From Nitrospira sp. (GTDB lineage Bacteria > Nitrospirota > Thermodesulfovibrionia > UBA6902): a stretch of 64,000 nt of DNA. The notes under the pieces are model-generated. The model searched no databases. It had not been told where the DNA came from and worked only from the letters and a program-made list of their open reading frames with translations. The stretch spans positions 8,746-72,745 of the forward strand of contig JADHUV010000009.1 in the NCBI GenBank assembly GCA_016784355.1, read 5' to 3'. How positions within the stretch are numbered: the first letter of the stretch is position 1; every line of letters begins with the position of its first letter. Positions 33,077 through 55,367 of the stretch are shown one piece after another. Position numbers and translations under genes: made by a program.

Positions 33077-33136
33077 GTTTTTAAATATCCTTTATCGACC
33101 CCTGTTAACACAAATAAGGCAAAAGTCTGTTGAATA

Positions 33137-42027: not shown

Positions 42028-42044
42028 TATATATATATATATAT
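42028..42044. repeat. (TA)8 dinucleotide microsatellite
   Basis: tatatatatatatatat read from sequence. Confidence 0.8.
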
Positions 42045-52000: not shown

Positions 52001-52104
52001 AGCTTCGGATATACAGGATGGCGGTTGAGAGACTCTTCGGTGTGTCCGGGGTGAAAACCTTTTTGGTCTTTACCGGCAGCGGAGATGTACTGGAGGTGAA
52101 ATAG
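49015..52104 (+). CDS. addA: AddA-like UvrD/REP helicase with C-terminal RecB-type nuclease
   Basis: 1029 aa; Walker A APAGSGKT; UvrD motifs; C-terminal nuclease DYKT. Confidence 0.7.
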   Translation: MSDYLDTGKSIMISAPAGSGKTEKLARRYISLLGSGVPVERILAVTFTDKAAAEMKQRILRILGREDKVLFASLRERLPMMRVCTIHSFCGSLLRRFAFDATVDPGYTVSDAVEAEMIWEGVLYDVLMQAESDPQQKVFFQHILSEKGFRGLHYFRDTMNGLYARMPFSLEAGLCEISDEISESDIEELRLWEGVSSTLDWYEGYITGASPGLTSTMEGMFLTSVKEPRKRAVAELKHVPDYGAWAELMHRFWRDAQTKVNRVRAAEMLDIFHKCLSRYTAFKKSRSILDFSDLEYLACRMLMDNPEWANILYAFDENTDHLLVDEFQDTNSFQWAIIDRLTEEWRAGMGSKREGGIRPTAFFVGDVKQSIYFFRGANVEIFHGAREKMEKWLADEFNYIEVKENYRSRPAIIDFTNRVFSRIMKTGDSGAPWESRYTEFVACKPGSGEAGSVEIIILPEEKIPVAEAKKNEGDLIARRIKGLAGTHMVADSASGRQRPCTYSDIAILLSKRTHLSGYEQALRKHNIPFVAVKGVGFYQEYEIGLLRSLIYFLTNPSDDYSLYVLLKGPFFVMREKTVLGLVNIQGGSLYDKICSADGLEAAGILQKWRAWLKTRYLSEIIGTAMVETGAWRYFHTPQQRANIIKFISILEGLESDGKSMIMIRDFLEKTESKNQEPKANVSVRGMEAVKIMTVHASKGLEFPIVILPGLEEAFSARAGESLVFEREGSFFYKYESEASLRKLDEDYILQAAREMEEQKRLFYVAATRAEEALVLVGRWTERDNNCMAYLRKGLGLQLNDGGVTVSDDFEGLSILSEEDVAMLYSHSTVSGESARPEKTIAVLASPVSVRTPWVSVTAEQEITNALDSDSGGLGDLIHRLLEKVSLGLLQEKDILSDAGIMLELTGYFSELKEKKLCIISNEIKVMKASGAWEEIVVPRKDSFAELPFVLRSGSVVYSGRIDRVIRSGSTYNIYDYKTFPVNKADLKEVSKAYSEQLRIYRMAVERLFGVSGVKTFLVFTGSGDVLEVK

Positions 52105-52865
52105 TGGGAAGACCGCTTGGGCAGCATTTTCTTTTTGATAAAAATATACTGAAAAAGATAATCAGGTATTCGGGAATAACAAAAAAAGATACGGTTGTTG
52201 AGATCGGGCCTGGACTCGGTCCGCTGACAGCCCTGCTTGCTGAAAGTGCGGGGAGGGTGGTGGCGCTGGAAAAGGACCGGAAGCTCATAGACCGGCTTTC
52301 TGAAAATCTTAAGGGGTATGACAATGTCGAGATCGTAAGCACGGATGCCCTGAAGTATCCATACGAAACACTTGGTGATAGTTTCAGGGTGGTTGCAAAT
52401 ATACCCTATTACATTACCACTCCGATAATCTTTAATCTGCTTGAATACCGGGCCTCGCTTAAAAGTATGACCCTGCTGATGCAGAAGGAGGTAGGGAGGC
52501 GAATTGTTGCAGTGCCGCCCGGCCGTGAGTACGGTGTACTCTCGATTTCTACGCAGCTATATACCCGTCCTGAGCTTAAGTTTACGGTCTCCAGGAAGGC
52601 CTTCTCTCCGCCGCCGGCAGTTGATTCTGCTGTTGTTCATTTCGATGTTTCGCCGGTGCCCTTGTATGATGTGGGGGATGCACAGTTGTTTCGCTCTATA
52701 GTGAAGGCCTGTTTTTCTCAGCGCAGAAAAACCATTCTCAATGGTCTGAAGGCCTTTGAGGGAATCAGGGAGGCACTGGATGCAGCTGGTATTGATCCTG
52801 TTGTCAGGCCGGAAACGCTCTCCATAGACAAGTTTGCAGATCTTGCCCGATGTCTGCGTAAGTAA
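52104..52865 (+). CDS. rsmA: 16S rRNA (adenine1518/1519-N6)-dimethyltransferase RsmA/KsgA
   Basis: 253 aa; LGQHFL N-terminus; SAM motif EIGPGLGPLT. Confidence 0.9.
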   Translation: MGRPLGQHFLFDKNILKKIIRYSGITKKDTVVEIGPGLGPLTALLAESAGRVVALEKDRKLIDRLSENLKGYDNVEIVSTDALKYPYETLGDSFRVVANIPYYITTPIIFNLLEYRASLKSMTLLMQKEVGRRIVAVPPGREYGVLSISTQLYTRPELKFTVSRKAFSPPPAVDSAVVHFDVSPVPLYDVGDAQLFRSIVKACFSQRRKTILNGLKAFEGIREALDAAGIDPVVRPETLSIDKFADLARCLRK

Positions 52866-53101
52866 ATTTTTTTTACAGCCTCTCGAGAACACTTTTTGTG
52901 TATAATTGTCATAGCAAATTCAATGCCTGATTACTGTAAATATGTTTTACAGTAGGCGTTTTATGTCCCTGTAACCTACGCTTTTATTGGTTTTGCGAGA
53001 TATATTTATGTGTAAATATCCTTTACAATCAAGCAGGAACCCCCTCTGTGTGCTGTTTTTGAAACTTTTTTAACACCCCCTAAAGTAAATTTCTTTTACA
53101 G
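52862..53101. promoter_or_regulatory. array of four phased palindromic operator-like sites (W)GTAAA-N5-TTTAC(A) at 52862-76, 52932-54, 53011-27 and 53085-99, about 74-bp spacing, upstream of the S8 protease
   Basis: read directly from sequence: TACTGTAAA-tatgt-TTTACAGTA; TGTAAA-tatcc-TTTACA; GTAAA-tttct-TTTAC; GTAAA-ttttt-TTTAC. Confidence 0.5.
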
Positions 53102-53177
53102 CCGAAGAAGAGTTACTAAGAGCCTGAAAGCCGGAAAGGCCTCAAGGCAAATGAGATGAAATTAGGGAGGTAGTCCT

Positions 53178-55367
53178 GTGTATAATCGAATGGTTCGTGT
53201 ACTTTCTTGTATGGCAGTTGTGCTGATACTGGCCGGTTATTTTTCATTCGCTTATGCAGAGTATGTGCCGGGTGAGGTTCTGGTTAAGTACAGGGACGGC
53301 AGCATGATATCTGAGAGTACGCTTTCCGAGGATGCCGGAATACAGCAGAAAAAGGATTTCCGTGCGATCCGGCTGCATCACATGGCGCTTCCGGAAAATA
53401 TGTCAGTGCAAGAGGCAATAGCAATTTATCAGCAGGATCCCAATGTTGAGTATGCAGAGCCCAATTATATTGTTGAAATAAATACTATTCCGGATGATAC
53501 TGATTTTACAGGTTTGTGGGGCATGCACAATGAAGGACAGACTGGGGGAGCAGTAGATGCGGATATTGATGCCCCTGAGGCCTGGGAACTTACTGTCGGA
53601 TCCGAAGATGTCATTGTGGCGGTAGTTGATACAGGGGTGGTTTATACACATCCGGACCTTAGTGCAAATATATGGACGAATTCCGGAGAAACCAGCTGCG
53701 TCGATGGTATTGACAATGATGGTAACGGCTATATTGATGATTGTAATGGCTGGGATTTTGTCGGCAGTGATAATGATCCTACAGACTATAATGGACATGG
53801 CACGCATGTAGCCGGAACTATTGCTGCGGTAGGAAATAATGCAGACGGCGTTAGCGGTGTGATGTGGAGAGCAAAGATTATGCCTCTTAGATTCCTGGGT
53901 GTAAATGGCACAGGCACTACCGCAGATGCTGTATCAGCGATACTTTATGCCTCTGCCAATGGCGCTCATGTTATAAACAATAGCTGGGGCGGCGGTGGAT
54001 ATAGTCAGGCATTGAAGGATGCTATAGATGCATCAGATACGGTGGTGGTATGCGCTGCCGGCAATAGTGGCAGTAATGTTGAGAGCACTCCATTTTATCC
54101 CGCCAGTTACACGAGTTCCAATATTATCTCTGTTGCCGCTACAGACCACAATGATCAATTGGCTGCTTTTTCCAATTATGGCATTACGTCCGTAGATATA
54201 GCCGCCCCCGGCGCTGGTATATACAGCACTGTACCGGTAATTGGCTATGGGGCACCGGTTACTGTTTACAGTCAACAGAGTTTTGAGGGTGCCTCCGGTG
54301 AACTTCCGCTGCTGGGCTGGAACCGGGGCGGAGCAAATTCCTCCTGGTCAGTTACGAGCGGTACCGGTACAGATGGAAGTAACAGCCTTGAGGACAGTCC
54401 CGGGGCTGACTATAGTAACAGCACTGGCTCCTGGGCAGGTTATATGACCCCGATAACCTCGGTGAAGGACAATATATACACTCTAACATTCAGCTGGAAG
54501 GGTGAGCTGGAAAATTATTTTGATTATCTGGATATTAACTATTCTCTGGACGGAAGCTCCTGGGACTGGGTTGATTACCGTACGGGCAGCACCAGTGGAG
54601 ATTTTGAGTCAGACTCCTCTGAGGATCTTACAAGCATTGCGGAGTCTTATGATGAATTTTATTTTGGCTTCGGTATTACTGCTGATAGCTCCGTAACCAG
54701 CGAGGGTGTGAGCATTGATGATATTGAATTAACTAGAACTCCTCTGCGGATTAGCAGTTACGGCTATTCAAGTTATAACGGGACATCCATGGCCGCTCCT
54801 CATGTGGCCGGGGTTGCAGGGCTTGTCAAGGCGCTGCATCCGGAATTTTCCAATCTGCAGATTCGGAGTGCGATAATAAACAGCGTAGATGTAAAAGCGG
54901 ATCTGGTGGGAAGTATCGCAACCGGAGGCAGACTGAATGCCTATGGGGCCCTTGTTGAAACGAATATCGATGTTATCAGTGATGGCAGCGGTGACAGTGA
55001 AACTGTTGTAGTGCCGGGAAGCAACTCAGGTATAGTTGAGGCAGCAGCCGGCGGTGGCGGCGGCGGTGGCGGCTGTTTTATCGCAACTGCGGCATACGGA
55101 AGTTTTATGCACCCGTATGTCAGGGATCTCAGAGAGTTCAGGGATGATTATTTATTGAGCAATTATCCGGGCAGGCTTTTTGTATATATGTATTACAAGT
55201 ACTCACCGCCTGTAGCGAATATTATAAAAGACAGCGAAGGCCTGCGGTTTGCATCAAGGATATTGCTGGCTCCAGTTGTTGCAGCAGTTACGATGCCTTA
55301 CCATGTACTGACATTAATGCTTGCAGGGGGTTTCATCTATATGCTCCGCCGCCGCAGAGTCCGGTAG
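53178..55367 (+). CDS. secreted subtilisin-like serine protease (S8) with inserted domain and Gly-run / CFIATAAYGS / TM / RRRR C-terminal tail
   Basis: signal peptide; catalytic D (VAVVDTGV), H (HGTHVAGT), S (GTSMAAPHVAG); about 170-aa insert between oxyanion Asn and Ser; C-terminal GGGGGGGGCFIATAAYGS...TM...RRRRVR. Confidence 0.85.
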   Translation: MYNRMVRVLSCMAVVLILAGYFSFAYAEYVPGEVLVKYRDGSMISESTLSEDAGIQQKKDFRAIRLHHMALPENMSVQEAIAIYQQDPNVEYAEPNYIVEINTIPDDTDFTGLWGMHNEGQTGGAVDADIDAPEAWELTVGSEDVIVAVVDTGVVYTHPDLSANIWTNSGETSCVDGIDNDGNGYIDDCNGWDFVGSDNDPTDYNGHGTHVAGTIAAVGNNADGVSGVMWRAKIMPLRFLGVNGTGTTADAVSAILYASANGAHVINNSWGGGGYSQALKDAIDASDTVVVCAAGNSGSNVESTPFYPASYTSSNIISVAATDHNDQLAAFSNYGITSVDIAAPGAGIYSTVPVIGYGAPVTVYSQQSFEGASGELPLLGWNRGGANSSWSVTSGTGTDGSNSLEDSPGADYSNSTGSWAGYMTPITSVKDNIYTLTFSWKGELENYFDYLDINYSLDGSSWDWVDYRTGSTSGDFESDSSEDLTSIAESYDEFYFGFGITADSSVTSEGVSIDDIELTRTPLRISSYGYSSYNGTSMAAPHVAGVAGLVKALHPEFSNLQIRSAIINSVDVKADLVGSIATGGRLNAYGALVETNIDVISDGSGDSETVVVPGSNSGIVEAAAGGGGGGGGCFIATAAYGSFMHPYVRDLREFRDDYLLSNYPGRLFVYMYYKYSPPVANIIKDSEGLRFASRILLAPVVAAVTMPYHVLTLMLAGGFIYMLRRRRVR

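Follow-up and report, generated by a model that had tools for sequence, protein, structure and literature searches.

Four evenly spaced palindromes and a conserved sigma-28-like promoter upstream of a Nitrospirota subtilase gene

What role do four matching palindromes play in the DNA between a gene for ribosomal RNA (rRNA) methylation and a gene for a protease? The question is raised by a 64,000-nucleotide stretch (hereafter the window) of contig JADHUV010000009.1 from Nitrospira sp. (assembly GCA_016784355.1), in which rsmA (ksgA, 16S rRNA dimethyltransferase; 52104-52865) is followed, after a gap of 312 bp (52866-53177), by a gene encoding an S8 subtilase (53178-55367); both genes and the sites between them lie on the forward strand. 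The original prediction, made from the letters of the sequence alone, took the palindromes for operator sites of a dimeric regulator in the leader of the subtilase gene. Our analysis confirmed the observation and partly supported the interpretation, in that an operator array is the best reading of the four sites. A sigma-28-like promoter, conserved ahead of homologous subtilase genes, is the better-supported and more general result.

The array of four palindromes

Exact matches to GTAAA-N5-TTTAC were found at 52862-52876, 52936-52950, 53012-53026 and 53085-53099, with centres at 52869, 52943, 53019 and 53092, all between rsmA and the subtilase gene. Site 1 (52860-52880; core GTAAATTTTTTTTAC inside the 21-nt repeat AAGTAAATTTTTTTTACAGCC) overlaps the stop codon of rsmA (52863-52865), whose final codons AAG TAA form its left arm. 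Site 2 (52932-52954) reads TACTGTAAA-TATGT-TTTACAGTA with perfect 9-bp arms, site 3 (53011-53027) reads TGTAAA-TATCC-TTTACA, and site 4 (53083-53103) has the core GTAAATTTCTTTTAC inside the repeat AAGTAAATTTCTTTTACAGCC. The four palindromes with their centres, the long arms of site 2 and the overlap with the stop codon had all been claimed before and were borne out, and the TGTAAA-N5-TTTACA core proposed for the set proved right for sites 2 and 3 and too broad for sites 1 and 4, whose left arm is AGTAAA. Common to all four, in the same orientation, is GTAAAT-N4-TTTACA.

The arms and the T at position 6 are invariant across the four sites, the centres vary, and the 57-61 bp of DNA between sites show no mutual similarity, so that the units share a 17-nt site only; Tandem Repeats Finder reported nothing on the array. 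This pattern argues for selection on the sites themselves, since a recent tandem duplication would have left similar DNA between them. The half-site centres are 10 bp apart, that is, one helical turn, which suits a dimer contacting successive major grooves, and the anatomy thus fits the dimeric regulator that had been proposed. Sites 1 and 4 are alike beyond their arms: 53083-53103 aligns to 52860-52880 at 95%, with 20 of 21 nt identical including the flanks, and the shared repeat can be written AAGTAAATTT(T/C)TTTTACAGCC. A tandem repeat, which would be similar along its entire unit, and an array of clustered regularly interspaced short palindromic repeats (CRISPR), with repeats of 23 nt or more beside cas genes, were rejected on the sharing of the 17-nt site only and on the lack of cas genes among the annotated neighbours.

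The clustering is far from what chance would give. On both strands of the window, GTAAA-N5-TTTAC has 4 exact matches against 0.04 expected, and no shuffled sequence contained four; allowing one mismatch added just two matches, both in coding sequence. The motif occurred once among about 107 fetched loci other than copies of this strain's locus. Because the earlier reader could have picked out any palindrome, we also ran a look-elsewhere test for any palindrome with 5-nt arms, a spacer of 0-10 and at least three copies within 400 bp. In the real window nothing qualified apart from the array and a trivial run of (TA)n at 42028, and none of 40 dinucleotide-preserving shuffles yielded any. The (TA)n run is a short microsatellite at 42028-42044, in the gap 5' of the rho gene.

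Start-to-start spacings are 74, 76 and 73 bp, exactly as had been reported; with 10.5 bp to a turn, they correspond to 7.05, 7.24 and 6.95 turns. Chance would bring three gaps to within 3 bp of one another with a probability of about 0.002, and would place all gaps within a quarter turn of whole turns with one of about 0.15; therefore even spacing, rather than phasing, is the informative feature. The further claim that the sites stand seven turns apart on the same face of the DNA holds approximately, and is weak when taken alone, with a chance of about 15%. These results confirm the four sites as a real, highly non-random and evenly spaced array.

Elsewhere in the window, TTAAATATCCTTTAT at 33081-33095 has 13 consecutive bases in common with site 3. 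It sits in the 60-bp gap between two hybrid histidine-kinase/response-regulator genes, where it overlaps the likely ribosome-binding site of the downstream gene, and the likeness (BLAST E 0.24) is probably due to chance.

A sigma-28-like promoter at homologous subtilase genes

Homologous loci were collected, and the DNA upstream of each subtilase start codon was lined up. A scan of genome contigs with a full-length subtilase alignment returned mostly unrelated subtilases, its search patterns being too generic; a scan of metagenomes with the family-specific middle domain gave 24 loci, and a further three came from look-ups of close homologues; none of these loci carries GTAAA-N5-TTTAC. A two-box element, T(A/T)AAG(T/A)-N15-CCGA(A/T), was found 36-106 nt 5' of the start codon in the window (53081-53108) and in nine homologous Nitrospirota loci (L086 at 1077, L089 at 1839, L090 at 1840, L092 at 1468, L094 at 450, L104 at 1767, L110 at 1439, L111 at 9944 and L112 at 9954). 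The ten upstream regions align without gaps, with the T-AAG and CCGA columns invariant and the spacer variable.

In the window, the element comprises a -35 box TAAAGTAA at 53081-53088 and a -10 box GCCGAAGA at 53101-53108. The strict pattern TWAAGW-N15-CCGAW has a single match there (53081-53106) and ten among the fetched loci excluding this strain's copies, eight of which lie upstream of Nitrospirota subtilase homologues; the other two are a match in L027 and a minus-strand match in L089. The promoter of L089 itself, the ninth homologous locus, has TCAAGA and so falls outside the strict pattern. Although the test is partly circular, the pattern having been derived from the same sequences, its uniqueness in each locus and its fixed position would be hard to explain otherwise.

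The element resembles a promoter of the sigma-28/FliA type, for which the published consensus is TAAAGTTT-n11-GCCGATAA (PMC2859248). TAAAGTAA and GCCGAAGA match the boxes of this class, TAAAG(TTT) at -35 and (G)CCGATAA at -10. Between the octamers, the window and all nine homologous loci have a spacer of 12 nt, one base over the 11 of the Escherichia coli consensus. The -10 box of the window reads CCGAAGA, whereas its relatives have CCGAAAT or the consensus CCGATAA. From this likeness we infer that a sigma-28-type factor would be the one used.

Other promoter types were considered and set aside. A simple scan had offered a sigma-70 promoter, TTGAAA-16-TAAAGT; TTGAAA is not conserved in the relatives while the downstream CCGA box is, and TAAAGT is therefore better read as a -35 box. 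No sigma-54 promoter facing the subtilase gene was found. On the minus strand, between sites 1 and 2, a sigma-54-like -24/-12 match (52928 to 52913; aGGCAt-N5-TTGCt) agrees at 8 of 11 consensus positions; it points into rsmA antisense with no gene downstream, and was judged to be probably a chance match.

The promoter places the array in a new light. Site 4 fills its spacer, the left arm overlapping the -35 box and the right arm stopping one base short of the -10 box. Transcription is predicted to start near 53115, upstream of the ribosome-binding site GGGAGG (53165-53170) and the GTG start codon at 53178 (together 53165-53180), and the centres of sites 1 to 4 would thus lie at about -246, -172, -96 and -23. 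All four sites would therefore be upstream of or inside the promoter, and the 312 bp would be mostly upstream control DNA; the label of leader given to them by the original prediction did not hold.

The conservation of a sigma-28-like promoter 5' of these genes in at least ten Nitrospirota lineages, with products that carry a CFI-box domain (see below), suggests that these CFI-box subtilases belong to a motility or late-flagellar programme. A gene for a CheR-CheB fusion was seen beside large hybrid sensor kinases about 7 kb past the end of the window (L113, 10659-12191), and the organism therefore has at least a chemosensory-type pathway. No flagellar genes were seen in the accessible 74 kb or so of the genome (the window and 10 kb beyond its end).

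Possible roles of the array

The reading that we prefer, and put forward tentatively, is that of a primary operator inside the promoter together with three auxiliary operators for a putative dimeric repressor. The subtilase gene would be transcribed from the sigma-28/FliA-type promoter TAAAGTAA-n12-GCCGAAGA, and the four palindromes would bind one putative dimeric DNA-binding protein, probably of the helix-turn-helix kind, that controls the gene in this species. Bound at site 4, the primary operator, the protein would compete with RNA polymerase and so repress transcription. Sites 3, 2 and 1, which lie 73, 149 and 223 bp further upstream at intervals of about seven turns, may act as auxiliary operators that raise the occupancy of site 4, either through cooperative contacts and DNA looping or through wrapping into a larger protein-DNA complex. 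Repression is favoured because the 12-nt spacer is also present in relatives without palindromes, which leaves no abnormal spacer for a MerR-style activator to correct.

Several results weigh against such an operator array. A Pfam scan of 44 window proteins (the four neighbours and 40 others) gave no plausible regulator gene near the array, and the sole transcription factor among these proteins was a sigma-54 activator of canonical type, encoded 48 kb away, which contains a GAF domain and has its GAFTGA motif intact. No regulon came into view either, as GTAAA-N5-TTTAC has no further copy in the window or in the 10 kb past its end. The 20 of 21 nt common to sites 1 and 4 indicate that part of the array is copy-derived rather than of independent origin. 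Phasing alone is not significant, and none of the known operator families tested gives an exact fit. The array was unchanged in more than ten assemblies, all of one strain from one sample series, which differ by few single-nucleotide polymorphisms (in addA, in the 5' untranslated region at 53133 and in the subtilase gene); this invariance is therefore uninformative on constraint.

Comparison among relatives gave no support. Neither GTAAA-N5-TTTAC nor a comparable repeated palindrome was present in any of 21 homologous upstream regions, including nine with rsmA and the subtilase gene in synteny (L091, L092, L094, L098, L099, L101, L103, L111 and L112), so that the footprinting check suggested with the original prediction found no conservation. 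The relatives compared are distant, sharing at most 65% protein identity (the value for the closest subtilase homologue), and none closer was found in the collections searched. Since binding sites turn over fast, the absence of the array at such distances removes the support from footprinting and limits the claim to one species, and function is not disproved by it. As far as the data reach, the array appears to be specific to this one species.

Its restriction to one species also suits the first alternative, in which the palindromes would be a by-product with little or no function. Pieces of an ancestral promoter abutting the rsmA stop codon, namely its -35 box and spacer, would have been copied locally as the gap grew from about 70-130 to 312 bp, and the palindromes would be leftovers of this process. 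Site 1 speaks for such a history. It resembles a copy of the -35 box and spacer of the present promoter (GTAAGT-N15-CC) without the -10 box, TCTCG replacing GAAGA, and may be a fragment of an old or copied promoter in which the palindrome survived and promoter function was lost. In L094, the -35 box TTAAGT of the working promoter is made of the end of rsmA, its final codon plus the stop (AAG TAA), and site 1 stands in the same register relative to the rsmA stop. The likeness of sites 1 and 4 extends outside the palindrome, and the gaps between rsmA and the subtilase gene in the syntenic relatives are mostly short (68-180 bp, versus 312 bp here).

Rearrangement of this gap is also visible in other lineages. 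L094 carries a second copy of GCCGAATTA 45 nt downstream of the first (within 440-540), a duplication of a promoter element. L098 and L091 have promoter-proximal sequence in common, and L098 has about 215 extra nt (within 700-900) flanked by the inverted repeats ACAGGGGAGCCTGT and ACAGGCTCCCCTGT, 144 bp apart, which indicates a tendency of the rsmA-subtilase gap to gain insertions in this clade. Neutral decay, however, would not spare all ten arm positions in each of the four copies and at the same time let the promoter boxes and all inter-site DNA diverge until no similarity was left. The flanks of sites 2 and 3 are unlike those of sites 1 and 4, the silence of Tandem Repeats Finder gives copying no help, and the even spacing of 73-76 bp is not predicted by neutral copying. 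Taken together, we regard a by-product with little or no function as unlikely, although it is the most probable of the alternatives.

Somewhat less likely again is binding by an activator or by an architectural protein of the nucleoid type, such as an NtrC- or Fis-type helix-turn-helix protein or an Lrp-like wrapping protein, which would give the upstream DNA a shape that stimulates a promoter with a -10 box (GCCGAAGA) weaker than that of the relatives. The departure of this box from the CCGAAAT or CCGATAA of the relatives agrees with the idea, and three of the sites stand at usual upstream-activator distances (-96 to -246). NtrC-type sites have a 6-5-6 geometry, which is also that of TGTAAA-N5-TTTACA; site 1 fits the loose Fis pattern G-N3-A-W5-T-N3-C, and regular spacing would suit wrapping. 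The position of site 4 is difficult to reconcile with activation: near-identical to site 1, it occupies the spacer of the promoter, and a protein at such a position usually keeps RNA polymerase out. In addition, the subtilase gene has no sigma-54 promoter facing it, a G or C at the centres of sites 2-4 disfavours Fis-like binding, and we could identify no protein of this kind.

We consider it very unlikely that the palindromes work as RNA hairpins in processing, stability or attenuation. The transcript would have to read through from rsmA, after which no intrinsic terminator was found, or start at TATAAT (52901-52906), where a -10-like TGTGTATAAT element lies between sites 1 and 2. As RNA, the arms of site 2 would pair in a 9-bp stem of -9.0 kcal/mol, but the other three hairpins reach just -2.3 kcal/mol and the fold of the region is not significant (z = -1.5). 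Rfam gave no match at gathering score or below E = 0.29, the invariance of the arms without compensatory changes points to a reading of sequence rather than structure, and the conserved promoter lies downstream of sites 1-3. A structured RNA or intrinsic terminator was rejected as a class on the same fold and hairpin values, on the lack of an Rfam family and on the lack of a terminator-like site.

Most improbable of all are core sites of a site-specific recombinase or the remnant of a small mobile element. Each site does have inverted arms around a spacer, and sites 1 and 4 are near-identical direct repeats of 21 bp between which the flanked 223 bp could be excised. Against this, no recombinase or transposase gene lies nearby, at least ten assemblies of this strain contain no excised or inverted variant, the 74 kb of genome include no other copy of the motif, a plasmid collection contained no similar DNA, the arms are just 5-9 bp long and a 5-bp spacer is short for tyrosine recombinases. 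A genome-wide repeat, whether a repetitive extragenic palindrome or bacterial interspersed mosaic element (REP/BIME) or a miniature inverted-repeat transposable element (MITE), was likewise rejected, with no exact copy outside this gap in the 64 kb or the extra 10 kb and no plasmid match. A replication origin was rejected because the cumulative guanine-cytosine skew rises across the whole window.

If the four sites are real operators, the 17-bp site would offer a defined bait for a regulator in a phylum with hardly any transcription factors of known binding site, and the locus would illustrate how control by a repressor can be added to a sigma-28-type promoter. A bolder version, which we consider improbable as a whole and which builds on analogy with Epr and WprA of Bacillus, is that an operator for a so far undescribed Nitrospirota regulator gates the sigma-28 promoter of a surface-anchored CFI-box subtilase, with some 220 bp wrapped or looped by the four sites; the protease could then act back on the control of motility, for instance as an enzyme that destroys a secreted anti-sigma factor. 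Promoters with several operators are already known, as are proteases that depend on sigma-28, and the present results do not overturn current understanding. The array would be a feature of an ordinary kind, known from one uncultured species.

Gene context and comparison with known regulatory systems

The array lies in a run of genes in which addB, addA and rsmA precede the subtilase gene and mnmG follows it, and the window also contains genes typical of anaerobes, namely multihaem cytochromes and a desulfoferrodoxin. Its homologues, together with the names of their sources, assign the organism to the Nitrospirota. The subtilase has an N-terminal prodomain of the fervidolysin type, a middle domain that is inserted, a glycine-rich linker and a CFI-box-CTERM domain for sorting or anchoring, and gene prediction made independently on further assemblies of the strain also gave its length of 729 amino acids. 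Its C-terminus (encoded at 55180-55367) consists of a run of eight glycines followed by CFIATAAYGS, a hydrophobic helix and an RRRR tail. The CFI-box-CTERM domain matched NF041770 (E = 9e-27), and the putative sorting signal was near-invariant in 36 aligned homologues. Three independent Logan assemblies of this strain (L119, L120 and L121) break off at one and the same position within the subtilase gene, at about 54231 after some 351 codons; this common break hints at strain heterogeneity or at a repeat in the inserted middle domain.

A short repeated word was also noted in the gap. The 9-mer TTATACACA (on the other strand TGTGTATAA, usually TGTGTATAAT) has five copies in the window, at 4128, 5732, 52897, 53177 and 53642, of which one lies between sites 1 and 2, one overlaps the start codon of the subtilase gene and another is placed 46 nt 5' of the sigma-54 activator gene. 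It fits the DnaA-box pattern TTATNCACA, which has 7 matches against 2.5 expected, and its copies may be DnaA boxes, -10-like promoter elements or a product of chance.

Among known operators, several come close to the array sites in length or layout. A literature search for a TGTAAA/TTTACA operator with N5 spacing found nothing, and BirA sites were rejected on their different spacing. The TnrA/GlnR boxes of Bacillota (TGTNA-N7-TNACA) have the same 17-bp length, and sites 2 and 3 fit TGTAA-N7-TTACA, whereas sites 1 and 4 read AGTAA-N7-TTACA and begin with AGT in place of TGT; these regulators are also known from another phylum. The link to MerR-type nitrogen regulators that had been drawn from this shape is unsupported, as two of the four sites are without the TGT end, the 44 window proteins include no MerR-family member, and none of the neighbours (addB, addA, rsmA, the subtilase gene and mnmG) has a part in nitrogen metabolism. 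Sites of the NtcA or CRP-FNR type (GTA-N8-TAC) are of even length, and the array sites, GTA-N9-TAC with an odd length of 15-17 bp, differ from them by one base.

MogR of Listeria represses flagellar and motility-class promoters through several TTTT-N5-AAAA sites that are jointly needed. Its sites are AT-rich palindromes with a 5-bp centre, as in the array, but the polarity of the arms is reversed (AAA..TTT in the array versus TTTT..AAAA) and the phylum is unrelated; no MogR homologue was found, though no search was aimed at one. The TyrR boxes of E. coli, TGTAAA-N6-TTTACA, occur several per promoter with one overlapping the promoter, and repression there depends on an oligomer that binds cooperatively. 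The array has the same half-sites, TGTAAA and TTTACA, and it too consists of multiple sites, one of which overlaps the promoter. The array nevertheless falls outside the TyrR box definition, as the spacer is N5 in all four sites instead of N6; its sites are 73-76 bp apart rather than adjacent, the promoter is sigma-28-like rather than sigma-70, and the host belongs to the Nitrospirota. No TyrR-like gene was found in the window, where the sole sigma-54-type activator keeps its GAFTGA motif.

The layout as a whole is closest to that of the lac, gal and deo repressors, in which an operator at the promoter is aided by auxiliary operators through looping or a higher-order complex. As in lac O1/O2/O3, gal OE/OI and deo, one site of the array lies at the promoter and further copies lie upstream at about whole helical turns, and we propose these systems, by analogy, as a working model; the array differs in its four sites, which follow one another at a constant and short distance of about 74 bp. 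The promoter, in turn, has its counterpart in the sigma-28/FliA class, with TAAAG and CCGA boxes 5' of the subtilase gene in the window and the nine other loci, and differs from it in the longer spacer (n12 versus n11) and in a -10 box of CCGAAAT or CCGAAGA in place of CCGATAA. For a subtilase gene under a flagellar sigma factor and repressors there is a precedent in epr of Bacillus subtilis, a member of the SigD (sigma-28) regulon on which several repressors act as well (PMC8767453). Taken together, the array sites are assignable to no operator family tested, and by analogy they would work like a multi-operator repressor system set on a sigma-28-like promoter.

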